Counted from the stretch's first letter, positions 1 through 14,169 are shown. The stretch is 64,000 nt of DNA from an uncultured Planctomycetia bacterium (GCA_964460615.1 CAYWPX010000002.1:71220-135219); one strand, 5' to 3'. Made by a program: numbers and translations. Notes: generated by a model from the letters alone, not told the origin.

Positions 1-152
1 ACCCATACCACGGGAACCGGTGCTTCCGGGGAGATCCTTGAAACTTTCCCCCATATGAATTCATCTATCATGACATCGCCGATGACAAGAACTCTTGCTT
101 TGTCAAAATCGGAAATAATCTTTACTAATCTTGCTAAATCTAGGTTTTTCAT
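1..152 (-). CDS. hldE: D-beta-D-heptose 7-phosphate kinase (HldE/RfaE domain I) N-terminal fragment; the gene continues past the window start
   Basis: Minus-strand translation from the ATG (rc at about 150-152) reads [50 protein letters not shown]. This is the classic RfaE/HldE N-terminus ([12 protein letters not shown]..[13 protein letters not shown]). An aaagg RBS lies upstream. Confidence 0.6.
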
Positions 153-234: not shown

Positions 235-1179
235 TTAAAGCTTTTCCAAAATCGCCTGATACAATAATGGCATCATTATTTCGTGATGACCTCTGATCTC
301 TATGCCTCGGCCACCGCATGAAACAGGCCTTTTAACGATGTTCACATTAGGCCTGTAGTGAGATATCATATCAAAATTTACGGTTGTAAAATCCTTAACC
401 TTTTTATATAAGTTCCTCGCTGTAGTAAGAGCCTTCAAAAAAACTTCGGGCATTATGACTGAAGAGCCAAAATTAATCAATACACCGCCGCCATTTAGCC
501 CTGAAACAGTGTAAATAAGATTCTTAAAATCCTTATATGATGCCTCTCCTATAATAGCCCCATCGCTTGACGGCTGCTGGTGCACTATGTCGGTACCTAT
601 TGCTATATGTACAGTTACCGGGACTTTTTCTTTGTATCCTGTCGCTAAAATCGACAAATTTTTGTAAGGCGCCTTTGATCTATATATAGCCTCACCGACA
701 GACCTGCCTGCGCCATAACCTGATTTTCTGCCTTTTTTTAAAGCGCTATTGATAAATTCCGCTGTCTCTCTTGCCATTCCAAAACTGCCGTCTTTTATGC
801 CGTCAGAAACTTCTTCGCTGGTCTTTCCAGCCAAGCTTATCTCAGTATCGTGTATCATGCCTGCGCCATTTAAGGATACCGCCGTAATTACGCCTTTTTT
901 CATCAGATCTATAACCAAAGGAGAAAGCCCGACCTTAATAACATGGGCACCCATCATAAGAATAACTGCTTTTTTATGTTTTTTGGCCGAAACTATTGCA
1001 TCAACAACGCTCTTAAAAGAATCTGCAACAAGAAATCCGGGTAAATTCTTATAAAAATCGCTAAATTTAGCGTTCTTTTTTGATGGTTTGGCAAAACCGC
1101 CAAGGTCCACCTTGCTATGTCTAGCAAAAAGCGAATACGTGTTCACCTTGCTTAGATCAGCTTCATTATATCTGTTCAT
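235..1179 (-). CDS. conserved protein of unknown function, possibly deoxyhypusine-synthase-like Rossmann fold; sits in the heptose/LPS cluster
   Basis: 314-aa ORF with motifs MMGAHVIKVGLSP and GEASYKD and a Gly-rich NGGGVLINFG. A TTGACA-N17-TAAAAT promoter lies directly upstream. The family assignment is only a weak recollection. Confidence 0.5.
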   Translation of the reverse strand: MNRYNEADLSKVNTYSLFARHSKVDLGGFAKPSKKNAKFSDFYKNLPGFLVADSFKSVVDAIVSAKKHKKAVILMMGAHVIKVGLSPLVIDLMKKGVITAVSLNGAGMIHDTEISLAGKTSEEVSDGIKDGSFGMARETAEFINSALKKGRKSGYGAGRSVGEAIYRSKAPYKNLSILATGYKEKVPVTVHIAIGTDIVHQQPSSDGAIIGEASYKDFKNLIYTVSGLNGGGVLINFGSSVIMPEVFLKALTTARNLYKKVKDFTTVNFDMISHYRPNVNIVKRPVSCGGRGIEIRGHHEIMMPLLYQAILEKL

Positions 1180-1507: not shown

Positions 1508-2551
1508 TTATTTCAGCCTGTCTTTAAATTTTCCGATCGCTTCTATCAGGTCAGCCACCTCTATTACTTTGAGGCACTTAAAATCGACCGTACAATTATG
1601 CGCCAGGCAAACCTTGCAACCTGCATCTTTTTGTATAGAGATATCGTTAATCCCCGTCGGACCCCACCTTTTTGGCCCAAGCCCCGGATCAATTCTTCCG
1701 AAAATAGAGATAACAGGAGTGCCCACTGCTACGGATATATGTACCGGGCCGGAGTCATTGGATATAAAAAGCCTGCTCAATTTTAAGACCGAGGCCAACT
1801 CCATAATAGTGGTTTTACCGCTGAGATCGATGATCTTATCTTTATTTTTGGCAAATTCCATTATCTTGCCGGAGAGCTCAGCGTCGTCTTTGCCAGAAAC
1901 GACTATAACCTTAGCCTTAAAATTATCGACCAAATAATCCGCAACCCCGGCGAATCTCTCTATCGGCCATTTTTTGGATACCGAGCTCGCTCCGGGATGC
2001 AATGTGACTATTATATCCTTGTCGCCTATCCCAAGACTTTTTAGAAAAGATCTGGTTCTTGATAGGACCACATCATCTAATTTAATATAAAGGGATCTAT
2101 CGAGTGAATTTATCCCCAGCGGCTTTAACATATCCAAAACATATTGGGATTCGCTCAGGAGGCCTTTTTCTTTTTCATGGTGAATAATTTCAGTGAGGAA
2201 TATTTTGCCTTTTCTGTCATACCCGATACGCCTTGGTATGCCGGCTAAAAATGCTATTAGATGTGTCCTCATGGTGGGGTGCAGGCAAATAGCAATATCA
2301 AATTTAATTTTTTTTAAACTAAATGCGAATTTTAATGTTGATAGAAAATTTTTATGGGTACCGTTTTTGTCATAGACTATGACTTCATCCAAATAAGGAT
2401 TATTCTTTACCAGATCCGCCGCATGCGGTCCTACCATAAAAGCTAAGTAACCGGAGGGAAACTTCTCTCTCAATGCTTTTATAGCCGGCGTCGAAAGCAT
2501 TACATCGCCGATCCTGTCAAGCCTTATAAGTAGTATACGTTTTGGGTCCAT
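1508..2551 (-). CDS. glycosyltransferase family 9 (ADP-heptose:LPS heptosyltransferase family)
   Basis: N-terminus KRILLIRLDRIGDVMLSTPAIKALREKFP is the GT9 signature, and the C-terminal half is GT9-like. It ends with a Cys motif CKVCLAHNCTVDFKC. Confidence 0.85.
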   Translation of the reverse strand: MDPKRILLIRLDRIGDVMLSTPAIKALREKFPSGYLAFMVGPHAADLVKNNPYLDEVIVYDKNGTHKNFLSTLKFAFSLKKIKFDIAICLHPTMRTHLIAFLAGIPRRIGYDRKGKIFLTEIIHHEKEKGLLSESQYVLDMLKPLGINSLDRSLYIKLDDVVLSRTRSFLKSLGIGDKDIIVTLHPGASSVSKKWPIERFAGVADYLVDNFKAKVIVVSGKDDAELSGKIMEFAKNKDKIIDLSGKTTIMELASVLKLSRLFISNDSGPVHISVAVGTPVISIFGRIDPGLGPKRWGPTGINDISIQKDAGCKVCLAHNCTVDFKCLKVIEVADLIEAIGKFKDRLK

Positions 2552-2600
2552 AGTTTTTTTTAATTAAAATCTTATAAGCTCATGGCTCATGGGTCATAGC

Positions 2601-3593
2601 TCATGGAGTTTTGTTGTTACTATGAGCTATTAGCAATCTCTTCGCTGCTTCAAAAACCTCATCCGGCGTTATAAGCCTCATGCATTCATGATTATAACGG
2701 CACTGGGCCTCTTCGCAAGGTGAGCAGATAAGATCTTTCTGGATCACTACGCTATGCTCGGCAAGAGGGCCGTATTTTTTGGGATCTGTGGGGCCGAATA
2801 TTGCAATTGTCTTTGTATTGGTGGCTGAACCTATATGCAAGGGCGCGCTATCATTTGTAACTAAAAGTTTTGCTCTTTTTATGAGAGCCGTTAATTGCCT
2901 GAGCGTCGTTCTTCCGGCAAGATTGATTATCTTATAATTGCTGATATGAGCGATATCCTGAATAAATGTATTGTCACTGGCGTCCCCTACCATAATAACT
3001 ATAGACTTAAACTCTTCCATAAGCCTGTCATTCAGAACTGCAAATCCTTCCTTGGACCAGCGCTTAATATGACTTTTTGACCCGGGGCTTATAATAACAA
3101 TATTGTTGTCCGCTCCCATTTTTTTAAGAAAGCTATCTACAAACGCTTCGTCATCTTTTGAAGTATATAAAGTAAAATTGGCATTTTTTATGTCAATACC
3201 GAGATTATGCAATTTCCAGAGGTGGATATCTTTTTTATGGCGTATCCTTTCGGGAGCTTTATGTATGGGGCTTGTATAAATCTTCGAGCCTAACAATATG
3301 GGAAAAAGCGTATTCCTCAGATCTATCACCAGGTCATACTTTATTTTTCTCAGTTTTGCAACTAAACGCCTCTTCTGCATCATAGGAGTGGTCTTATCAT
3401 AAATAATTAATTTAAAAATTGCCGGGTTATCTTTAAATAACTCTTTACCGTTCGGGCCTACCATTATATCTACACGTGCTTCCGGAAAATTATTTTTAAG
3501 CGCACACAATACCGGAGTAGTGAGAACTATATCACCGATATTACTAAGTGTTATAAGAAGAATTCTTTTAATTTTAGTTTTATCTAATTCCAT
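2601..3593 (-). CDS. glycosyltransferase family 9 (heptosyltransferase family) paralog
   Basis: KRILLITLSNIGDIVLTTPVLCALKNNFP. C-terminal motif CSPCEEAQCRYNHECM. Confidence 0.85.
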   Translation of the reverse strand: MELDKTKIKRILLITLSNIGDIVLTTPVLCALKNNFPEARVDIMVGPNGKELFKDNPAIFKLIIYDKTTPMMQKRRLVAKLRKIKYDLVIDLRNTLFPILLGSKIYTSPIHKAPERIRHKKDIHLWKLHNLGIDIKNANFTLYTSKDDEAFVDSFLKKMGADNNIVIISPGSKSHIKRWSKEGFAVLNDRLMEEFKSIVIMVGDASDNTFIQDIAHISNYKIINLAGRTTLRQLTALIKRAKLLVTNDSAPLHIGSATNTKTIAIFGPTDPKKYGPLAEHSVVIQKDLICSPCEEAQCRYNHECMRLITPDEVFEAAKRLLIAHSNNKTP

Positions 3594-3596
3594 GTT

Positions 3597-4640
3597 TTAA
3601 ATCCCTGAAAGAAATTTATTCTCATCTATCTTTTTTATAACATCCTCTACGGTTATAGCTTTCATGCATTTGAAATCATCACAGCTAAAATTATAGCACG
3701 GCACTTCACAGCCGATATCCGAGCTGATAACTACCGTATTCTCTTTGCCATATGGCCCGGTAAGATCGGGTTTTGTCGGGCCAAAAAGCGCTACGGTATT
3801 CACCTTCAGGCTATTTGCTATATGCATTGGCCCTGAATCATTTGCTATAACAAGGCTCGACATTTTTAATATTGCTCCTAACTGCTTGAGATTTGTGGCT
3901 CCGGCAAGAATTACCGGTTCTGATCTCATCATGGATTCAATGTCATTAGCTAACTCAATATCTTTTCTGGCGCCGGTTATAACGATCTTTACTCCATATT
4001 TTTCAACTAATCTGTCCGAAAGTTTTGCGAAATTTTCCCGTGGCCATCTTTTGGGATCCCAATTCCCTCCCGGGTTGATAACTACAAGGGTATCTTCCTC
4101 TTTTATACCTTTTCTTCTTAAAAGGTTTTTTGCGAATTCAGCGTCATTCTTTGATATATAAAATTCATATCCCAGCCCTTTTACATCAGCACCTAAAAAA
4201 CCGGCGATCTTAAGAAAATAATCGACCTTATGGGCTGCCTCGAGAGGGGGCTCGATGATTTCAGTCAGGAACGCATTTCCCTTTATACTAGCATAGCCGA
4301 TCCTGTTTTTTATTCCCGACAAAACTGCTATAAGCCGTCTTGTAATAGAGCGATGGAGGAATATTGCCGTATCAAACTTCAAAGACCTGATCTCATTTAT
4401 CAGCTTAAGTTTTCCGAATAAGGATCTGTGTATGCCTTTTTCGTCATATATTATAAGTTTATCTACCGAAGGGTTGAGATCCAACACCTCTTTGGTCCTT
4501 GGCGCAATAAGACATGCTATGTACGCCTTGGGATAGAGATTCCTTATGGCACGGATAAATGGCGTAGAAAAAATGACATCCCCTATCCAATTGACTTCCA
4601 CAATAAGAATTCTTTTTGGGTTAATACCGGCTTTTGTCAT
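3597..4640 (-). CDS. glycosyltransferase family 9 (heptosyltransferase family) paralog
   Basis: KRILIVEVNWIGDVIFSTPFIRAIRNLYP. C-terminal motif CEVPCYNFSCDDFKCM. The ORF-track N-terminal extension to 4790 overlaps the upstream deacetylase gene, so I take the start as the internal Met (MTKAGINPKRILIV). Confidence 0.75.
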   Translation of the reverse strand: MTKAGINPKRILIVEVNWIGDVIFSTPFIRAIRNLYPKAYIACLIAPRTKEVLDLNPSVDKLIIYDEKGIHRSLFGKLKLINEIRSLKFDTAIFLHRSITRRLIAVLSGIKNRIGYASIKGNAFLTEIIEPPLEAAHKVDYFLKIAGFLGADVKGLGYEFYISKNDAEFAKNLLRRKGIKEEDTLVVINPGGNWDPKRWPRENFAKLSDRLVEKYGVKIVITGARKDIELANDIESMMRSEPVILAGATNLKQLGAILKMSSLVIANDSGPMHIANSLKVNTVALFGPTKPDLTGPYGKENTVVISSDIGCEVPCYNFSCDDFKCMKAITVEDVIKKIDENKFLSGI

Positions 4641-5451
4641 GCGAATTTTCCGTATCCCCTCGTCTGAAATTCCTGAATTTTTTCTTAATATCTTTGACGA
4701 ATGTATAGTAACCGCTGATCTCAAACCAAAAAACAATGGGGTTATCGCAATTCCTGGTAATCTTGATCCTCGGCATAGCGTAAACGTCATTTCTCTTATA
4801 TTTAAACGGAGGATTGGTGCTTACCGCTCCCATATATCCTGAATCTTCGACGATTTTTTTGACCTCATCATTCATTCTGCCCAAAGGATAGCAGAACATG
4901 TTAACCTTTGACCCGCTATTGGCCTCGATGACACTTTTTGAACCGGCTATCTCGTCGGATAAGACCGATACGTCTTTTATCATATCCAAAAACGGGTGGC
5001 TTTTGGTATGGCTGCCGAACTGGATCCTGTCTTTTGACATACGGCGGATCTCGTCCCAAGTAAGATAATTATCTTTGCCAATATAATCGGTAATAATAAA
5101 GATCGTTGCCGGGATATCATATTTTTTTAGTATGGGATAGGCATTTTTATAATTATCTTCATATCCATCGTCAAATGTAACAGCCACGACCTTGTCCGGC
5201 ATCTCTAAATTGCTTTTAATGCGCGAAATCAATTCATCAAGCGGTATAACCGAATATTCGTTATCGCGCAGGAATTTCATATGCTTTTCAAAACTCTCGG
5301 AAGAGACGAGAAGATTATCATCCCCCGGATATTCGGCTATCTGGTGATACATCATCACAGGAGGTACGTAGATGCTCCTCAGAGCAGTGCCGATGACAGC
5401 ATAAATTGCTATAACAATTACTATTATCGTAAATAATCTTTTTAATTTCAT
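4621..5451 (-). CDS. polysaccharide deacetylase (CE4/NodB domain), membrane-anchored
   Basis: N-terminal TM helix, then VAVTFDDGYEDNY...ATIFIITDYIG...HTKSHPFL, which are NodB-homology motifs. Confidence 0.8.
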   Translation of the reverse strand: MKLKRLFTIIVIVIAIYAVIGTALRSIYVPPVMMYHQIAEYPGDDNLLVSSESFEKHMKFLRDNEYSVIPLDELISRIKSNLEMPDKVVAVTFDDGYEDNYKNAYPILKKYDIPATIFIITDYIGKDNYLTWDEIRRMSKDRIQFGSHTKSHPFLDMIKDVSVLSDEIAGSKSVIEANSGSKVNMFCYPLGRMNDEVKKIVEDSGYMGAVSTNPPFKYKRNDVYAMPRIKITRNCDNPIVFWFEISGYYTFVKDIKKKFRNFRRGDTENSHDKSRY

Positions 5452-6548
5452 ATCTCTTTTATGGTGTTTTTGTAAAAAAGTTCTATTTTCTGCGCCATTA
5501 CCGTTAAGGAAAAATTAACCTTAGCAAATTCTCCCGCTTTTTGCCTGATAGCGTCAGAAAGATTTTTGTCTTTTAGTAATTTTACTAAAATTGCCTTAAT
5601 GCCCGGCTCATCCCCTGCTTCAAAAAAAAGTCCCGTTTTGTTTTCCTCGATAATATCCTTTAGGCCTCCGGTCCTTGAAGCTGCAACAGGCACACGGCTG
5701 GCCATTGCTTCAATAGCCGCCAGGCCCAAACCCTCTTTAAGGGACGGTATGACAAATACATCGAACATCGAAAGAGCTTCCCTCGTATCCTTAAGAAGCC
5801 CGAGAAAATGCACATTTTTCTTAAGGCCATTTGACTCAACAAAGCTAACCAATTCTTCCTTAAGCCTGCCCTCGCCCACTAAGACCAAAGAAGCATTCGG
5901 AAAATCCGCTAATAAACTCTTAAAAGCCCTTAAAAGATGCATCTGCCCCTTCTCTTCGGTGAAACGTCCTATCGATCCGATAACGGGGCTGCCTGTAACG
6001 TTAAACTTAGTCTTATAATCTATCTTATTTGCCCCGGCAAAATCCCGGAATCTATCTACGTCAATGCCTGTATATATCGTCTCAATGGAGCTTGGTTTTA
6101 GGCTGAATTTATCTATAAGGTCTTTTTTTACGGAATCACTGATAGCTATCGTTTTATCTCCAAAAAATTTGAACAATACTCTCCCGGCCCGTTTCTTGAA
6201 AAAACCGTGCGCAGTTGTCACATACGGAATCTTCGCGATCCTACTTGCAAAAAAAGCCGCAACCTGAGTCACTCTGGTGTTGGCATGCACTATTTCAATA
6301 TTATTCTCTTTGATTATTTTTAAGAGGCCGAATATAGACGCAAATGTCCTCGGGCTTAGCTCCGATTTTGTATTTATATCAAGCTTGATGTGACTTATCC
6401 CGGCTTCTTTTAGCTCGCACTCTAATTCTCCGCCGTAACTCGCCACTATTACAAGATTACCCCTGTTTTTAAGCATCCCGGCGAGATTTACCACATACCT
6501 CGCTATCCCGCCCGTATTTAAATGAGTTGTTGCAAAAAGTATGTTCAT
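5448..6548 (-). CDS. glycosyltransferase family 4 (GT-B, RfaG-like)
   Basis: TGGIARYVVNLA at the N-terminus and EGLGLAAIEAMASRVPVAASRTGGLKDII (E-X7-E region) typical of GT4. Confidence 0.85.
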   Translation of the reverse strand: MNILFATTHLNTGGIARYVVNLAGMLKNRGNLVIVASYGGELECELKEAGISHIKLDINTKSELSPRTFASIFGLLKIIKENNIEIVHANTRVTQVAAFFASRIAKIPYVTTAHGFFKKRAGRVLFKFFGDKTIAISDSVKKDLIDKFSLKPSSIETIYTGIDVDRFRDFAGANKIDYKTKFNVTGSPVIGSIGRFTEEKGQMHLLRAFKSLLADFPNASLVLVGEGRLKEELVSFVESNGLKKNVHFLGLLKDTREALSMFDVFVIPSLKEGLGLAAIEAMASRVPVAASRTGGLKDIIEENKTGLFFEAGDEPGIKAILVKLLKDKNLSDAIRQKAGEFAKVNFSLTVMAQKIELFYKNTIKEI

Positions 6549-6554
6549 TTAGTT

Positions 6555-8711
6555 TCAGGAATTAAAAATTGCCTGTCCGGATTCATCATTTGAGAAATTC
6601 TGGTTACGATTTTCCCGTTTTTTATTTAAATCGGTATCTATATACTCTGAAACAGCTTTCATGACCTCTTCGACTTTGATATCTTTCATACATTTATTAT
6701 TCTTGAGGCACCCGGGCTTATAACACGGGGAACAATTTATGCCGCTTCTTATGATTTTTACATTACCGGGCGCATGTCTTTTGGGATCAGTAGGCCCGAA
6801 AAGCGCCACACAAGGCACGTTCAGGCTTGAAGCCACATGCATAGGAGCGCTGTCGCTTGTGACCAGAACGCTCATTTTATTTATCAAGGCTATCAGGTCC
6901 CTCAAATCTGTTTTACCCGCTGCAATAATGGGTTTACTCTGGGTCTTGGAAGCGATCTCCTTGGCAAGGTCAATATCAAGTTTGGATCCTATTATCACAA
7001 CCCTTGTATTATATTTTTTTGCTATCTCATCACAAAATTTGGCAAAGTATTCAGCCGGCCATCTTTTGGTCTGCCATTTTGCACTGGACCCCGGGTTGAT
7101 ACCTACAAGGCATTTTTGAGTATTGAACCAGTTCTCTTTCAGGAATTTATCAGCCCATTGGTCCTGCACCTTGCCCGGCCAAAGCTCTAAACCTGGGTCT
7201 TCAAGCTTGATCCCTAACATCGATAATACCCTGAACTGATGCTCTATAGGGCCGATATCCGGAATATTATTTTTTATCTTGTTATTCAACAGGAATGACC
7301 ACTTCTTATTATCATAGCCGAATCTTTTGGGCGCAAGACTTAAGAGAGCCAACAAATGGCTCGTCCGGTTATTCTGAAGATCTATAACAATATCAAAACA
7401 ATTTTTCCTTAAATAGCTTCCGATCTTAAGTATATCCTTTATCCCTTTTTTCTCAGGATCAAATATTATCTCATCATCTATATAAGTGCATCCGGCAAGA
7501 ACCTGCCTTGACTGAAGCCCTACAAGGACTTTTATAACGGCATTAGGAAATTTTTTTCTTATAGCCCGAAGGCTGGGAACTGACAATATAACGTCCCCGA
7601 TAGCGCTTATCTTTATTACCATAATATTAAGGCTTTCGAGGGCCTCTTCATACACCTTTAGAGTGCTTTCAAGCATCTTCTTGACGCTGAAGTTATCTTC
7701 TACATTCTTCCGTCCGTTTATAGCAAGTTGTTGCGCAAGATTTTTGTCTTTTGCTATCTTCAGTATTGCTTCTGACATTCCTTTCGGGTCATTAGGGAAG
7801 CATAATAATCCGTTGATATTATTTTTAATCACATCAAGGACCCCGCCGACCCTCGTCGCAACTACAGGCACCCCTGAGGCCTGGGCCTCAATAATGGTCC
7901 TTCCGAACGCTTCGGGAGTTGTTGTGGCAGAAACAAGGACATCCATCTTAGAAAGAACCTCGGGTATATTTTCCTGAAATCCCATAAACTCTACGATAGG
8001 TTGTAACCCAAGTCTTCTTATAAGTAACTCCAGCTCCTCTTTGTATTTCAATTTATCTTTTGACGCGTCCCCCACAATCAATACCTTAAGTTTCGGAATT
8101 GCCCTTGATACCAAAGCCGCCGCCTTAATAAAATCCGTGTGCCCCTTAAGCGGCGTTATCCGCGCTATTATACCCATTGTAAATTCATTTTTATTTTTAT
8201 CTCCGGGCGAGGAAAATCTGAACTTATCAAGATCAACCCCTCTATGGATGATCCTAATCCTGTTATAAGGGACTCCGAAATCCTCTATCATATGCTTAGC
8301 AATGGGATTTGATATGGCTATGACAAATTTTCCCCATCCCATTACGTAACTAAATATATTTTTGGAATAATACCCATGCGCTGAGGTTATAAATTTCACA
8401 TTGGTAATGCGTGAAGCAAAAAATGCCGCTATTGCGGGTACCCTGCTTCTGGCGTGCACAATATCGATCCTCTCGTCTTTAATTATTTTAACGAGCTCCC
8501 GGACCATCCTGATAACAGTAAGCGGGGATTTTTTATACACGGGAAGAGTATAGTGTCTGATCCCTGAGCGATCTAAGTGGCTTGTAAGCGGCCCACCGCC
8601 TGAGACTACGATAGATTTATGTTTATTTTCGGCCAAAAATCTGGCCACATCTATAGTCCCGCGCTCAACACCGCCGTATTCCAGCTTTGGTAATATTTGA
8701 AGTATATTCAT
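6555..8711 (-). CDS. fusion protein: N-terminal GT4 glycosyltransferase plus C-terminal GT9 heptosyltransferase-family domain
   Basis: Residues 1-360 are GT4-like (YGGVERGTIDVARFL...EAFGRTIIEAQASGVPVVATRVGGVLDVI). Residues about 365-718 are GT9-like (IMVIKISAIGDVILSVPSLRAIRKKFP...). The protein ends with the same Cys motif CSPCYKPGCLKNNKCM. Confidence 0.8.
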   Translation of the reverse strand: MNILQILPKLEYGGVERGTIDVARFLAENKHKSIVVSGGGPLTSHLDRSGIRHYTLPVYKKSPLTVIRMVRELVKIIKDERIDIVHARSRVPAIAAFFASRITNVKFITSAHGYYSKNIFSYVMGWGKFVIAISNPIAKHMIEDFGVPYNRIRIIHRGVDLDKFRFSSPGDKNKNEFTMGIIARITPLKGHTDFIKAAALVSRAIPKLKVLIVGDASKDKLKYKEELELLIRRLGLQPIVEFMGFQENIPEVLSKMDVLVSATTTPEAFGRTIIEAQASGVPVVATRVGGVLDVIKNNINGLLCFPNDPKGMSEAILKIAKDKNLAQQLAINGRKNVEDNFSVKKMLESTLKVYEEALESLNIMVIKISAIGDVILSVPSLRAIRKKFPNAVIKVLVGLQSRQVLAGCTYIDDEIIFDPEKKGIKDILKIGSYLRKNCFDIVIDLQNNRTSHLLALLSLAPKRFGYDNKKWSFLLNNKIKNNIPDIGPIEHQFRVLSMLGIKLEDPGLELWPGKVQDQWADKFLKENWFNTQKCLVGINPGSSAKWQTKRWPAEYFAKFCDEIAKKYNTRVVIIGSKLDIDLAKEIASKTQSKPIIAAGKTDLRDLIALINKMSVLVTSDSAPMHVASSLNVPCVALFGPTDPKRHAPGNVKIIRSGINCSPCYKPGCLKNNKCMKDIKVEEVMKAVSEYIDTDLNKKRENRNQNFSNDESGQAIFNS

Positions 8712-8722
8712 AATTTGTTTGC

Positions 8723-8782
8723 TCTAGGGTCCAGGGTCTAGGGTTTAAGGTTTTCAGCCCTACAGCCTGGAGCCGGGAGCGA
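8723..8782 (-). repeat. tandem heptamer array CTAGGGT/CCAGGGT/CTAGGGT/TTAAGGT followed by CAGCCCT/ACAGCCT/GGAGCCG; shares the 12-mer tagggtttaagg with the 168-233 element
   Basis: Read directly in the spacer between the LpxL-ELM1 stop and the GT4-GT9 start. Confidence 0.55.
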
Positions 8783-8792
8783 TTTTAGTTTT

Positions 8793-10736
8793 TTACACAA
8801 ACCTCTCAACAGCCTTTAAGACCTTTACGTTATCATCCAAAGGCTTGAGGGTTATGATCTGCTTCAATAATTTGTCAGAAAATTCCGCTATTTTTTCAGG
8901 GCCGGTAAAAACTATGTTGCCCTCCGAACTAAGATCTTTAAGCATGGATAAATGCTTCGAGCCCGACTTTATTACTAACGGCTCGAAGACCAGGACCTTT
9001 TTCCCGCTTGATATGGCTTCAGAGACCATAGAGCTTGAATCGCCGGATACAACTATAATATCAGAAATGCCCATTATGCCGGAAAGCGCAAAATCATAAT
9101 TTTTTTCATTGGCTATGACCAAAAATTTGCAGTACTTATTACCGGTAAGCCTCTTTTTGATAGTGTCTTCCACTTCCTTAGAAGTCCTGCGCGATGTAGT
9201 CAGAAGTATCCGGGCGGAATTTTTTTCACAGAAATCCGTGACCTCATCCAATACCTTGTTGATAATTTCATTATTGATCACAAAGCTGTCGTTTGAACCG
9301 CCGATAATGACCCCCACATTGATAGAGTCCCCCGGTTGTACCAATTGAAGAATCTTATTTTTAGACTCCTCCAAAAGATCCTTTGAAATAAGATTTGTAG
9401 TACCTTTGGTAACGACAACTCTATGCGATTCTTTTACTAAGTCATGTTTTGGTATGATAAGGAGATTAAAATGCGACCTTGCCATGAATCCGGGATCCAT
9501 AGAAGCAATATTCCTGGCGTTATTATCGGATTTTGCAAATATATTTACAGGGACCATCGACGAACCTGTAGAAATAATTATATCGCCGTATGTATTGACC
9601 AAATTTTTGTAAGAATCCGCCGTTAAAGCAAATTTTAATGCGACTCTGGGAATTTTATAGAATAAGGCCATAGAAAGACAAATAAACATATTTTTTCTTA
9701 AATTATTTTTAAATTTTATATCCAACTCTTTCACCGGAGTGTCAGATACTTTATAACCTTTTTCAAACCTCAGCTTCATAATCTTTTCGGCAATGGACCT
9801 GGACTGATTGAGGTGTCCCTGCTTTCCATCGCTTAAAATTATAATAGTTTTAAGCGGGGTGGATTTCCATCTTTTATGCACCCAGAGCCACTGGTCGGGA
9901 AATCTCCTGATATATGACTCCAGGATATTTGAGTATTTGGTTAAATTTACAGACTCGTCTGCAAATTTTTTGCCGGTATTTGTGATTTCAAGGGGCTCTT
10001 CGATATATATTGTATGCTTTGGCCCCTTCTCTCTGACAATAAATGTCGGCAATATTACAGCACCCGTTGATTCTGCCAGGTTCACAACCCCGGCTGCAAA
10101 AGAAGTAGGCCTTCCGAAAAAATCAACAAATACTCCGCGCCTCCCGGCATCCTGGTCGGATAAAACCCCTATCAGCTTATTCTCCCTTAAATCCTTGAAT
10201 ATCTCTCTGGTAGCCATACCTTTTTTTACTACTTTGCAACCTTTTATCTGGCGATAGAAGTTTAATAATCCGTTTAAGGCCTTCATCTTCTGCTCTCGCG
10301 CTAGCACTGACAGAGGATAGCCTATAATGGCGCTAGTAATACTGGTTATCTCCCAGTTACCAAAATGAGCCGTTAAAAATATAACGCCTTTTTTTTTGGA
10401 AAGTGCCTTATCTATGCGATCCATATTTTTTACTTCTATATATTCGCTTACATACCTTTTATTAACTCTGGGCAGAGTAAAGACCTCCACTATCACTTGG
10501 CCGAAGTTCTGATACATCTTTTTTATCAGGCTATCAATTTCTTCCGGAGATCTTTCGCCTTTGAACGCCGCCTTCATATTGGCATAGGCAACACGCTTTC
10601 TTTTGATATTCAGGTAATATGCAAGCGTCCCGAAACATCTGCCGATAAATAACCCTGCTCTGACAGGAATTAATAAAAATACCAGGCTAAATATTAGCGC
10701 TATAAATGAGAGAATCAAGTCTGCTAAGTAAAGCAT
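8793..10736 (-). CDS. lpxL: fusion: lipid A late acyltransferase (LpxL/HtrB family) N-terminal domain plus ELM1-family (PF06258-like) C-terminal domain
   Basis: N-terminal TM, then LTAHFGNWEI (HxGNWE motif of LpxL/LpxM), ...FPDQWLWVHKRWK. The C-terminal approx. 340 aa contain GVIIGGSND, LLTTSRRTSKE and VVSGDSSSMVSEA, reminiscent of ELM1-family proteins. Confidence 0.7.
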   Translation of the reverse strand: MLYLADLILSFIALIFSLVFLLIPVRAGLFIGRCFGTLAYYLNIKRKRVAYANMKAAFKGERSPEEIDSLIKKMYQNFGQVIVEVFTLPRVNKRYVSEYIEVKNMDRIDKALSKKKGVIFLTAHFGNWEITSITSAIIGYPLSVLAREQKMKALNGLLNFYRQIKGCKVVKKGMATREIFKDLRENKLIGVLSDQDAGRRGVFVDFFGRPTSFAAGVVNLAESTGAVILPTFIVREKGPKHTIYIEEPLEITNTGKKFADESVNLTKYSNILESYIRRFPDQWLWVHKRWKSTPLKTIIILSDGKQGHLNQSRSIAEKIMKLRFEKGYKVSDTPVKELDIKFKNNLRKNMFICLSMALFYKIPRVALKFALTADSYKNLVNTYGDIIISTGSSMVPVNIFAKSDNNARNIASMDPGFMARSHFNLLIIPKHDLVKESHRVVVTKGTTNLISKDLLEESKNKILQLVQPGDSINVGVIIGGSNDSFVINNEIINKVLDEVTDFCEKNSARILLTTSRRTSKEVEDTIKKRLTGNKYCKFLVIANEKNYDFALSGIMGISDIIVVSGDSSSMVSEAISSGKKVLVFEPLVIKSGSKHLSMLKDLSSEGNIVFTGPEKIAEFSDKLLKQIITLKPLDDNVKVLKAVERFV

Positions 10737-11730
10737 CTTTCCCTTCTTTAATCTCTATATTTATTTTCAGCACAAAAATCTTAATATTCATGCTGTCAAT
10801 ATTATTAAGCTTCTTTATCTTGACAAAATCTTTTTGCGTTGTCAGGACCGCCGCATTATTAATTTTTGCTGATACAAGAATCTGCTTAAGATCCTTATCA
10901 GAATAGTTATGATGATCCATGAATCTAATATCATCTTTTATCACCCCGCCTGACTTTTCAACCATCAATCTGAAATATTCGGGGTTTGCTATTCCGGAGA
11001 CAAGGATGAAATCTTTGCCCTTCAGAAACTCATCTTTCAGTTCTACCCCCATAGAAGGGTCCAGAATAGACTCTATTTTATAATAAGATTCCGCAAATAT
11101 CGCTTTATCGTTAATTTCCTTTATATCCCTCTTAAGCGCCTCCGGATCGGCTTTAGGAAAATCGCACTTAGTGAAAACTATTATATCGGCTCTTTTAAGA
11201 GAATCTTTAGGCTCTCTTAGAACGCCTCTGGGAAATAAAAAGCTGTTTCCAAAAGAATTGAGCGCGTCTATTAGTACTATGTCCAGATCCCTTTTAAGCT
11301 TCCAGTGCTGGAAACCGTCATCCAAAAGTATTAGTTCAGCTATTTTAGCTTCACTGATAAGTTTGGCATTTTGGGACTTATTAGGGCCTATAAATACAGG
11401 GAGCCCTGTTTCCTCCTGAAGAATGAATTTTTCATCTTCTCCGTACCCCCTCGTAATTATTGCGCCTCTTCTATTTTGCCTTTTTATAAGATCGGCAAGA
11501 TATATGGTAAAAGGAGTCTTACCGGTACCTCCAAGAGTAATGTTCCCTATGCTTATAACAATTGCATCGGCTTTAAAAGCCTTTAATATGCCTATTCTAT
11601 AGCCAAACTTGATAAGATTTAAAAAAAAACCATAAAAAACCGAGATAACTCTTAAAATCAATCTGACAAAAAAAGAAAAAACTCCTTTTTTCTGATCCTG
11701 CATTACAGAATATAAATATTCTACTATCAT
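10687..11730 (-). CDS. lpxK: tetraacyldisaccharide 4'-kinase
   Basis: VISIGNITLGGTGKTPFTIYLADLIK Walker A and LpxK-like length and architecture. It sits between waaA and lpxL. Confidence 0.85.
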   Translation of the reverse strand: MIVEYLYSVMQDQKKGVFSFFVRLILRVISVFYGFFLNLIKFGYRIGILKAFKADAIVISIGNITLGGTGKTPFTIYLADLIKRQNRRGAIITRGYGEDEKFILQEETGLPVFIGPNKSQNAKLISEAKIAELILLDDGFQHWKLKRDLDIVLIDALNSFGNSFLFPRGVLREPKDSLKRADIIVFTKCDFPKADPEALKRDIKEINDKAIFAESYYKIESILDPSMGVELKDEFLKGKDFILVSGIANPEYFRLMVEKSGGVIKDDIRFMDHHNYSDKDLKQILVSAKINNAAVLTTQKDFVKIKKLNNIDSMNIKIFVLKINIEIKEGKDALLSRLDSLIYSANI

Positions 11731-11765: not shown

Positions 11766-13061
11766 TTAAATCCTTATATTCTTATCATTCAAAAGGATCT
11801 TAATTTTAAAAATTGCATTATTACTGGCGCCGATATTCTCATCGATCAGGCTTCTGGCGCGCCTTCCGAGAGCCAGGCGCTCTTTTTCCATATTAAGCAA
11901 TCTTAAGCTGGCCAGGTAAAGATTATTTTCATCATCAACTACAATACTGGCGCTATTTTTTAGAAATAGCTCCGTAATATCCCTGAAATTAAAAACATGC
12001 CTTCCGAAAATAATCGGCTTTCCGTAAAATGCCGGTTCCAGGATATTGTGACCGCCGTGTTTAACCAGGCTTCCCCCGACAAAAGCAATGGTACTAAAAG
12101 CATACATGTCTTTAAGCACGCCTATCTTATCGATAATCAGAACGTCAAAATTGTCGGTATTTTTTAATTCCGAAAACAATTTTGTTTTCAGCTTGAAATT
12201 TTTCTCAAAAATATTTTTTATCTCAGTACACCTGTCGACATGCCTTGGAGCTATGAAAAGCACCAGATCTTTAAAATCGCCCTTCAATTTTAAAAATACT
12301 CTTGCGGCCATCTCCTCTTCGCCGTGATGCGTAGATCCGGCGATGAAAATATTTTTATACTTATCAAAATCAACCGATCCTTTATATTTGTCTTTTATTT
12401 TATCAATATCTTTTTCCAATTTTAGCGCAGAATCAAATTTAATATTACCGACCTTAAATGCGCTTTCAGGCCTGGCTCCAAGCGCCTCTACTCTGTTATA
12501 ATCAACTTCTGTCTGCATACAAAATAGATCGACTCTTTCAAACGTACCTTTAAGTATCGGCTTTAAAAATAGATACCCATTAAAAGATCTGTCCGAAATC
12601 CTCCCGTTTATAAGCGCCATGGGAATATTTCTTTTGGATAAAGTTCTTATCATGTTGGGCCATATCTCGGTATCTACGGTTATAAATAGCCTTGGGTTTA
12701 TCTTTGAAACTGCTTTTTCGGTTATAGAACTTATGTCAAAAGGAAAATATATCACTACTTCATTTTTTCTGGCCAATTTTTTGGCTACCTCTTTGCCGGT
12801 TTGCGTTACGTTTGATATAACAATTGCGGCCTCAGGAAATTCACGCCTTAAATTTTCTAAAAACGCTTCCGCTGCCGCAGTTTCTCCGACGCTAACGGCA
12901 TGAAGCCAGATAACATTTTTATCTTTGAGCATTTTTAGCTTATCATCGCTATATTCACCCAGGCGTTCTTTGAATTCACTGTCAAATTTTCGTTTTATGA
13001 TATATCCCGGAAGAAAAACCACTATCAAAAATATAAAAACAATGTTAAATAATATGTACAT
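11766..13061 (-). CDS. waaA: 3-deoxy-D-manno-octulosonic acid (Kdo) transferase
   Basis: N-terminal TM and VIWLHAVSVGETAAAEAFLENLRREFP, typical of KdtA/WaaA. 431 aa. Confidence 0.85.
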   Translation of the reverse strand: MYILFNIVFIFLIVVFLPGYIIKRKFDSEFKERLGEYSDDKLKMLKDKNVIWLHAVSVGETAAAEAFLENLRREFPEAAIVISNVTQTGKEVAKKLARKNEVVIYFPFDISSITEKAVSKINPRLFITVDTEIWPNMIRTLSKRNIPMALINGRISDRSFNGYLFLKPILKGTFERVDLFCMQTEVDYNRVEALGARPESAFKVGNIKFDSALKLEKDIDKIKDKYKGSVDFDKYKNIFIAGSTHHGEEEMAARVFLKLKGDFKDLVLFIAPRHVDRCTEIKNIFEKNFKLKTKLFSELKNTDNFDVLIIDKIGVLKDMYAFSTIAFVGGSLVKHGGHNILEPAFYGKPIIFGRHVFNFRDITELFLKNSASIVVDDENNLYLASLRLLNMEKERLALGRRARSLIDENIGASNNAIFKIKILLNDKNIRI

Positions 13062-13206: not shown

Positions 13207-14169
13207 CTATGCTCGTGGATGCGTCTTGTCATACACGGCTTTGAGGCCATCCATAGTAACATGAGTATAAATCTGAGTTGTTGATAGATTAAGATGCCCC
13301 AATAACTCCTGCACACTTCTGAGATCAGCCCCTCTATTGAGTAGATGCGTAGCGAATGAGTGCCTTAGGCTATGAGGCGATATCCCCTGCCTGAAACTTA
13401 AGGCCTTTATATATTTATCAAGGATCCTTCTAACTGACCTATCTGTCAGCCTTTTGCCATATTTATTCAGAAAAACAGCTGAGTTTTTTTCACCTGACAG
13501 CTTTGCTCGTTTTGAAAAATATCCCCTGATTGATTTAAGGGCCCTGTCCCCGATAGGGCTTAACCTTTCTCTTTTACCTTTGCCTCTCACCTTAAGCACG
13601 CCGCTTATAAAGTCAATGTCATTCTGATTTAAACCTACTAATTCACTTACTCTTATACCGGTAGAGTAAAGCGTCTCCAGGATCGCTTTATCTCTCAATG
13701 AGGCCTCATCATGCCTCTTAAAACGCTTTGTTGTTTGCTCCGAAGGAGCATCCGAAGGAGCATCCGAAGGAGCATCCGAAGGAGCATCCGAAGGAGCATC
13801 CAACGGGGCATCCAATAATTTTGCGATCTCTTCTTCGCTTAAAAAAACCGGCAGTTTTTTATCAAGTTTTGGAGTTGAGATCGATAAAGCCGGGTTTGAC
13901 TTCACGTGTTCTTCCCGGAAAAGGAATTTAAAAAACGACCTGATGCATGAAAGGCGCCTGGCAATTGTGCGTTTGGATAAATTTTTTGTCTTAAGGTAAG
14001 CAAGATATCTTCTAAGGACCAGATAGTCCGCTTCTTCTATGGTGATCTTCAGATCTAAAATAAATTTGTCAAAATCCTTCAGATCATCAGCATAATTGGT
14101 GATAGTATGATTTGAGGCATTCTTTTCGACTCTCAGATATAATAGATATTTATCTACAAGCCTATCCAT
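13207..14169 (-). CDS. xerC: tyrosine site-specific recombinase XerC/XerD family, with an internal (DAPS)n repeat linker
   Basis: Catalytic region HSLRHSFATHLLNRGADLRSVQELLGHLNLSTTQIYTHV. The N-terminal core-binding domain and the catalytic domain are joined by LDAPLDAPSDAPSDAPSDAPSDAPSE. Confidence 0.85.
   Translation of the reverse strand: MDRLVDKYLLYLRVEKNASNHTITNYADDLKDFDKFILDLKITIEEADYLVLRRYLAYLKTKNLSKRTIARRLSCIRSFFKFLFREEHVKSNPALSISTPKLDKKLPVFLSEEEIAKLLDAPLDAPSDAPSDAPSDAPSDAPSEQTTKRFKRHDEASLRDKAILETLYSTGIRVSELVGLNQNDIDFISGVLKVRGKGKRERLSPIGDRALKSIRGYFSKRAKLSGEKNSAVFLNKYGKRLTDRSVRRILDKYIKALSFRQGISPHSLRHSFATHLLNRGADLRSVQELLGHLNLSTTQIYTHVTMDGLKAVYDKTHPRA
13738..13813 (-). repeat. in-frame 12-bp tandem repeat (gaaggagcatcc x5 plus a variant) encoding (DAPS)n inside xerC
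   Basis: The plus strand reads ctccgaaggagcatccgaaggagcatcc... with five near-perfect 12-mers. Confidence 0.8.

Follow-up and report, generated by a model that had tools for sequence, protein, structure and literature searches.

What does it mean when four glycosyltransferase domains that lie close together in one genome all end in the same four cysteines? The question is raised by a 64,000-nt stretch of DNA from an uncultured Planctomycetia bacterium, which in its whole length is called the window here. Four open reading frames (ORFs) carrying a domain of glycosyltransferase family 9 (GT9) lie between positions 1508 and 8711 of the window, all on the minus strand. A previous sequence-only reading had proposed that the shared tail is peculiar to this paralog group and serves as a structural zinc site or a redox module, and that the locus makes an unusually heptose-rich or non-lipopolysaccharide glycan. 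We found that the observation is real and that the tail is a family-typical trait, not a paralog-specific module. It is quite probable, in our judgement, that the locus is an ordinary lipid A/inner-core cluster for lipopolysaccharide (LPS), in which old paralogs carry a family-typical and probably structural metal-binding tail. The four GT9-bearing proteins or domains, named w1 to w4, are listed below.

1508..2551, minus strand: w1, GT9 paralog, 347 aa (PF01075, 111 bits); four-cysteine knuckle CKVCLAHNCTVDFKC at 1574-1618
2601..3593, minus strand: w2, GT9 paralog, 330 aa (PF01075, 122 bits); four-cysteine knuckle CSPCEEAQCRYNHEC at 2682-2726
3597..4640, minus strand: w3, GT9 paralog (PF01075, 129 bits; TIGR02195, 161 bits); four-cysteine knuckle CEVPCYNFSCDDFKC, the C-x3-C variant, at 3666-3710
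6555..8711, minus strand: w4, fusion of a GT4 and a GT9 domain, 718 aa (PF00534, 134 bits; PF01075, 129 bits); four-cysteine knuckle CSPCYKPGCLKNNKC at 6690-6734

All four GT9 domains scored 111-129 bits against PF01075, for which the cut-off is 22. At the end of each stand four cysteines and then [LM]-[KR]-x-I-x4-[VL], so that the shared tail reads C-x2/3-C-x4-C-x4/5-C-[LM]-[KR]-x-I-x4-[VL]; when w1 to w4 are aligned, every one of the four cysteine columns is invariant. The tails quoted in the sequence-only reading, for four GT9 domains within 7 kb, proved to be exact and their cysteine columns aligned, with the correction that w3 has C-x3-C and not C-x2-C. The clustering is not a matter of chance, because cysteine makes up about 1.0% of the residues in the long ORFs of the window, whereas the stand-alone GT9 proteins have five cysteines each, four of them within 15 residues. 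In an alignment of 98 homologous sequences, the four positions were kept in 98/98, 98/98, 95/98 and 98/98 sequences, respectively.

The position of the tail in the fold was taken from an AlphaFold2 model of w1, the only one of the four paralogs covered by structure prediction. The model, built from the 98-sequence alignment, had a predicted local distance difference test score (pLDDT) of 97.1 and a predicted template-modelling score of 0.94, with block-mean pLDDT values of 93-98 across the tail. In it, the loop behind the last strand (304-307) holds Cys312 and Cys315, a one-turn helix precedes Cys320, and Cys326 is part of a short helix (325-328) that comes immediately ahead of the C-terminal helix (332-340). 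The tail is thus predicted to form a short knuckle that leads from the final beta-strand of the C-terminal Rossmann lobe to the C-terminal helix. Foldseek placed the model closest to known GT9 structures, with a template-modelling (TM) score of 0.88 to 3TOV, 0.79 to WaaF and 0.74 to WaaC. Residues G15-D16, K193, W195, D266-S267 and H271 are invariant among the four paralogs and the 98 homologues, and align with GD13, K192 and D261 of WaaC; D13, K192 and D261 are the catalytic and ADP-heptose-binding residues of that enzyme. The catalytic signatures are intact in all four GT9 domains.

To count the tail in other genomes without circularity, we used a profile (A2) made from the four domains with the tail removed. 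Among the 120 closest homologues that it retrieved from a collection of 5.8 billion proteins, mostly annotated as Omnitrophota/Omnitrophica proteins from metagenome-assembled genomes together with some from Elusimicrobia, all 120 had four cysteines at the site; the compact spacing was present in 116, the spacing C-x2-C-x7-C-x6-C in three from Elusimicrobia, and one was truncated. By these closest homologues the window is assigned to a Candidatus Omnitrophota genome, and w1 is 100% identical to a protein at NCBI. A scan with one genome per species gave 24 genome loci, and the tail was found at the same place in 29 of their 36 complete GT9 ORFs, as counted from the printed tails. The titles of these loci cover about ten phyla, including Planctomycetes, Clostridia, Nitrospirae, Desulfobacteraceae, Bacteroidetes, Cloacimonadota, Chlorobi, Ignavibacteria, Kapaibacteria and Elusimicrobia. 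When 1.84 billion cluster representatives were searched exhaustively with HMMER, 78,678 GT9 relatives were found at E<=1e-3, and in the best 149 of these representatives (clusters at 50% identity) the motif was present in 162 of 187 GT9 domains (87%).

The tail was also present in eight of ten named isolates, namely Neisseria gonorrhoeae (CSPCFKRECPLGHTDC; CSPCFKRECPLGHTDCLNRL), Aeromonas caviae, Fusobacterium vincentii, Paraburkholderia sprentiae (waaF), Burkholderia sp. RPE67, Cupriavidus sp. EM10, Parabacteroides distasonis and Mesorhizobium ciceri; of these ten, Azospirillum brasilense and the RfaQ-like protein of Proteus mirabilis lacked it. These isolate tails were anchored by a hidden Markov model (HMM), as MAFFT mis-anchored the raw ORFs of Paraburkholderia, Cupriavidus, Parabacteroides, Mesorhizobium and Proteus. 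The RfaF-scoring proteins of N. gonorrhoeae and A. caviae reached 454 and 484 bits on TIGR02195 (heptosyltransferase II, cut-off 134.6 bits), and hence the tail occurs in proteins that score as heptosyltransferase II. On the same model w1, w2, w3 and w4 obtained 135.3, 144.9, 161.2 and 160.5 bits; all of them barely pass, far below the two isolate proteins, and the four paralogs cannot all be TIGR02195 equivalogs. Against TIGR02193 (heptosyltransferase I, WaaC) their best scores were 75-90 bits, below the cut-off of 185.3.

When the four cysteines were changed to alanine in silico, the PF01075 score of w2 fell from 121.7 to 114.0 (7.7 bits) and that of w1 from 111.4 to 106.7, with a truncated alignment, and the TIGR02195 score of w2 fell from 144.9 to 132.8 (12.1 bits). 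The loss of 5-12 bits indicates that both curated models, Pfam GT9 and TIGR02195, expect cysteine at these positions. Judged by these sequences, the four-cysteine tail is the usual state of GT9 outside the enterobacterial WaaC, WaaF and WaaQ, and the textbook enzymes of Escherichia coli are the exceptions. The sequence-only reading had said that canonical WaaC and WaaF do not have the tail, and for the E. coli enzymes the alignment bears this out, since both are without the cysteines. Its proposal that the tail belongs to this paralog group fails, since the tail is common in GT9 of many phyla, in Neisseria and Aeromonas and in curated profiles; in substance it has the family-wide occurrence that the reading itself said would make it unremarkable, though not literally in every GT9.

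What the tail does is best approached through TibC. This enzyme has an "iron finger" roughly 20 A away from its active site, and in the finger Cys339, Cys342, Cys358 and Cys370 hold Fe(III) in tetrahedral coordination (PMC4358343). Mutation of any one of these cysteines abolishes iron binding, assembly of the dodecamer and activity; the authors call the finger unique, comparing it with WaaC only (PMC4358343). They also liken it to rubredoxin, saw no sign of electron transfer and assign it a role in assembly (PMC4358343). With the tibC sequence taken from the H10407 chromosome, TibC scored 39 bits against PF01075, above the cut-off of 22. Sequence searches of the Protein Data Bank, with the single protein and with a profile, missed TibC even at E<=10; the link came via Foldseek and hhalign. 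Foldseek gave TM scores of 0.58-0.62 (E 5e-10) between the w1 model and TibC (4RAP/4RB4), which ranks after the plant protein PnsB1. PnsB1, a subunit of the chloroplast NADH dehydrogenase-like complex (PDB 7EU3/7WFF/9GRX), matches the GT9 profile at E 5e-9 and has the GT9 fold (TM 0.67); it is a GT9-derived protein recruited into a photosynthetic complex.

The hhalign comparison of a 98-sequence profile (A3) with TibC gave a probability of 81%, an E value of 1.2e-5 and 155 aligned columns. It paired Cys312 and Cys315 of w1 with Cys339 and Cys342 of TibC, and Cys326 of w1 with Cys370 of TibC. In the flank, FKCLKVIEVADL stands opposite FECTRLITGAQV, which may be compared with ECMRLITPDEV in w2. 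We regard the compact knuckle and the TibC iron finger as probably homologous, which is not proven. The knuckle would then be a compact form of what in TibC is an expanded Fe(III) finger, one needed there for structural integrity. Most likely its four thiolates hold a single metal ion, Zn2+ or Fe, in a tetrahedral arrangement. The metal would staple the loop, which would stabilise the C-terminal lobe and keep the C-terminal helix anchored, and the role of the site would be structural, not catalytic. From this comparison we infer both metal binding and the identity of the metal, and a structural staple with Zn or Fe is the most likely function. Apart from the TibC paper, our search of the literature library brought up nothing of relevance to a Zn or Fe site in LPS heptosyltransferases, and no description of the compact motif in these enzymes. 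The structural metal site of the sequence-only reading therefore stands as reasonable by way of TibC, with Zn or Fe as the metal, and its restriction to one paralog group does not.

The genes around w1 to w4 bear on the second part of the question, the glycan. They are the following.

1..152, minus strand: stand-alone heptose-7-phosphate kinase (RfaE domain I), first 50 codons only, cut by the window edge; assigned from the translation and the same gene on a matching contig
235..1179, minus strand: GSU2086-family protein (NF052581, 421 bits), between the GT9 cluster and the heptose kinase
4621..5451, minus strand: polysaccharide deacetylase (PF01522 and NCBIfam)
5448..6548, minus strand: GT4 glycosyltransferase (PF00534 and PF13439)
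8793..10736, minus strand: LpxL-type lipid A acyltransferase (PF03279) fused to an ELM1-like domain (PF06258, 147 bits)
10687..11730, minus strand: LpxK, tetraacyldisaccharide-1-phosphate 4'-kinase (PF02606, 250 bits)
11766..13061, minus strand: WaaA/KdtA, transferase of 3-deoxy-D-manno-oct-2-ulosonic acid (Kdo) (PF04413, 196 bits)

Read along the minus strand, the order is waaA, lpxK, lpxL-ELM1, GT4-GT9, GT4, deacetylase and three GT9 genes. Beyond a 329-nt gap there follows a separate unit with the GSU2086-family gene, the heptose-7-phosphate kinase and kdsB, the last of which was read on the matching contig (L025). On that contig the kinase gene scored 382 bits on TIGR02198, for which the cut-off is 345, and it is followed by an ORF that matches kdsB. 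The GSU2086-family protein had no match in a Pfam scan. The gap (1180-1507), which is upstream of its gene, contains a promoter-like sequence resembling TTGACA-N17-TAAAAT, and this suggests a separate transcription unit. The neighbour that had been read as hldE does contain the heptose kinase part; it is a stand-alone gene and not bifunctional, only 50 codons of it lie within the window (1-152), and the fragment is set apart from the GT9 genes by the GSU2086-family gene as well as the gap.

The true start of w3 is likely M51 at 4640, which would give a protein of 347 aa. The ORF in full covers 3597-4790, and the shorter form is preferred because homology starts at about residue 58 of the long ORF and the long form overlaps the upstream deacetylase gene by 170 nt. 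In w4 the GT4 domain is N-terminal and the GT9 half occupies about residues 362-690.

Because the neighbours are WaaA, LpxK, LpxL, a heptose kinase and kdsB, the setting is that of the LPS inner core. In such a setting the four GT9 enzymes most likely add successive sugars derived from ADP-heptose, or related ones, to Kdo-lipid A; we infer their sugar and acceptor specificities from sequence. The unusually heptose-rich or non-LPS glycan of the sequence-only reading is not supported, given the lipid A and Kdo neighbours, the lack of a TibC N-terminal domain in the window proteins and the three or four GT9 genes seen elsewhere. A protein heptosylation system of the bacterial autotransporter heptosyltransferase (BAHT) type was also considered and rejected as unsupported: no window protein matched PF21129 (the TibC N-terminal beta-barrel) or TIGR04414, both of which TibC matches.

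Several other features of the window may be recorded. The combination of LpxL (PF03279) and an ELM1-like/DUF1022 domain (PF06258) in one protein is an unusual fusion within a lipid A/core operon. Directly upstream of the starts of w4 (8712-8792) and w1 (2552-2600), on the minus strand, are short odd repeats, CCCTAGACCCTGGACCCTAGAG and ATGACCCATGAGCCATGAGC. A tyrosine recombinase similar to XerC/XerD at 13207-14169 (minus strand) has a central five-fold tandem "DAPS" insertion (LDAPLDAPSDAPSDAPSDAPSDAPSEQ). Throughout the window (1-64000), all genuine-looking ORFs of at least 150 aa are on the minus strand, and none of the 2-kb bins departs from a negative GC skew; the genes of these 64 kb are thus co-oriented to an extreme degree.

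The history of the four genes was examined through their identities. The four GT9 domains of the window share 30-37% identity with each other. A locus of another Omnitrophota genome (L002) has four GT9 genes that are reciprocal best hits to w1 to w4 at 51-55% identity, that is, 1:1 orthologues, in the same gene order and with the same GT4-GT9 fusion. Because the orthologues are closer to each other than the window paralogs are among themselves, the paralogs are old; these values indicate ancient duplications and a conserved cluster. Recent duplication of the four genes, which the sequence-only reading had wished to see checked by phylogeny, is ruled out by the same comparison. Several other genomes and plasmids likewise have three or four GT9 genes in one locus or replicon, and E. 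coli has three.

Fusions among these genes recur. The GT4-GT9 fusion is seen at L002:1-1960 of the Omnitrophota locus and in the database matches P0026 and P0118, and it suggests that two consecutive steps of core glycosylation may be carried out by one polypeptide. In many related genomes, genes similar to w2 and w1 are joined into one tandem GT9-GT9 protein of about 670-690 aa (P0002-P0021, P0121-P0146). Such tandem proteins made up 33 of the 149 representatives, and both halves usually keep their own four-cysteine tail.

Our interpretation, an ordinary LPS locus with a family-typical and probably structural metal tail, has some evidence against it. All distribution samples were seeded from the window proteins, so that the heptosyltransferase II-like part of GT9 is over-represented in the counts. 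The models for HepI (TIGR02193), HepIII, RfaQ, enterobacterial RfaF and RfaC show no preference for cysteine at the tail columns. About 13-20% of the sampled GT9 domains lack the cysteines and presumably are still functional, and therefore the site is dispensable in some lineages. As for TibC, its Cys358 lies inside a 16-residue insertion and has no column partner in the hhalign alignment. An HMM of the tail only gave a weak score of 5.5 bits against TibC, which was equalled by 6 of 2000 composition-preserving shuffles, and because of this weak similarity the homology of the knuckle is no more than probable. Finally, only one heptose-pathway gene was seen in the window and the 3-kb contig of the GSU2086-family neighbour, and thus ADP-heptose is a putative donor.

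A bolder extension of the family-typical reading is that GT9 had the compact knuckle ancestrally and that the knuckle does bind metal, possibly as an iron site of the rubredoxin type. We hold this only tentatively, as a possibility rather than an expectation. If it were true, most LPS enzymes of the heptosyltransferase II type would be metalloproteins that have gone unrecognised, Neisseria, Aeromonas and Burkholderia among their sources, the E. coli models would be the exceptions, and the "unique" iron finger of TibC would be an elaboration of a common module. No paper that says so was found in the searchable library.

Other explanations were less consistent with the data. Some of the four GT9 proteins perhaps use a non-heptose donor or a non-LPS acceptor, such as a protein or another glycolipid. 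GT9 in CAZy also holds non-heptose transferases, only a single heptose-pathway gene is visible, and all four proteins lie near the heptosyltransferase II cut-off while none is a heptosyltransferase I (at most 90 against 185 bits), which makes the equivalog assignment unreliable. However, the genes stand in an operon-like run with waaA, lpxK, lpxL and kdsB, the TibC-type N-terminal domain and a TIGR04414 match are both absent, and the residues aligned with the ADP-heptose-binding motifs of WaaC are conserved, so we think this unlikely.

It might also be supposed that the four cysteines form a redox-active iron centre, either a rubredoxin-like 1Fe-0S centre or a [4Fe-4S] cluster, which couples core synthesis to the iron or redox status of the cell. 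In its favour, Omnitrophota are anaerobes with abundant Fe-S proteins, as are many others that carry the tail, and the knuckles resemble metal knuckles of the C-x2-C or C-P-x-x-H type. TibC, moreover, binds Fe(III) and not Zn at the probably homologous site, which its authors likened to rubredoxin (PMC4358343). Yet in TibC some 20 A separate the finger from the active site, and its role is in assembly, with no sign of electron transfer (PMC4358343); glycosyl transfer from ADP-heptose by the established GT-B mechanism needs no redox chemistry, and the repeated loss of the cysteines in functional enzymes such as E. coli WaaF points to a replaceable structural role. We consider a redox centre decidedly unlikely.

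The cysteines could instead form two disulfides, or merely pack as hydrophobic residues, with no metal at all. Their close spacing would permit disulfides, and in some lineages a loop of equal length has ordinary residues in place of the cysteines. But these enzymes work on the cytoplasmic face of the inner membrane, a reducing compartment, and the conservation of four cysteines together is the signature of a tetrahedral metal site. TibC, the sole solved structure with four cysteines here, coordinates a metal ion (PMC4358343), and a site without metal is therefore very unlikely. Least credible of all, and barely worth retaining, is a Zn or redox module peculiar to the four paralogs that marks a heptose-rich or non-LPS pathway: the invariance of the cysteines in w1 to w4, their absence from E. 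coli WaaC and WaaF and from 3TOV, and the nearby heptose kinase gene speak for it, but most sampled GT9 of many phyla, including heptosyltransferase II scorers, have the tail, the Pfam and TIGR02195 models reward it, and the paralogs are old, with their cluster kept in an Omnitrophota locus and lipid A and Kdo genes as neighbours.

For the window itself the result means little, as a conventional LPS inner-core locus carries a flagged motif that is a trait of its family. The wider interest is limited to the widespread and structurally uncharacterised GT9 knuckle, which probably corresponds to the TibC iron finger. The structural and mechanistic picture of LPS heptosyltransferases rests on E. 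coli WaaC and WaaF, both without the knuckle that most sampled GT9 carry. If the knuckle binds metal like its probable counterpart in TibC, this would bear on the stability and heterologous expression of these enzymes, and on the design of inhibitors against the WaaF-type enzymes of pathogens.

Among known enzymes, the closest in kind are the non-enterobacterial WaaF/RfaF proteins (TIGR02195; N. gonorrhoeae, A. caviae), which are like w1 to w4 in Pfam family, length, catalytic motifs and the four-cysteine tail. They share only about 25% identity with the window proteins, which score 135-161 against their 454-484 bits, and the window differs in having four paralogs, one of them fused to a GT4 domain. 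The solved structures of E. coli WaaF (1PSW), E. coli WaaC (2GT1/2H1H/6DFE) and the Veillonella parvula protein 3TOV have the GT-B fold and the Asp/Lys/Asp motifs in common with the window proteins, but their loop is without cysteines. In WaaF (1PSW) and 3TOV, a loop of the same length occupies the same place with other residues at the cysteine positions. Therefore, the putative metal knuckle of a typical GT9 has no experimental structure. TibC/AAH (BAHT; TIGR04414; 4RAP/4RB4) is like the window proteins in having four cysteines between the last strand and the C-terminal helix of a GT9-family C-terminal lobe, and three of the four cysteines align together with the x-R/K-x-I-T-x3-V motif. Its loops are much longer, C-x2-C-x15-C-x11-C compared to C-x2-C-x4-C-x5-C in the window, and its N-terminal beta-barrel (PF21129), beta-hairpin thumb, dodecamer and protein acceptor are features that none of the window proteins has.

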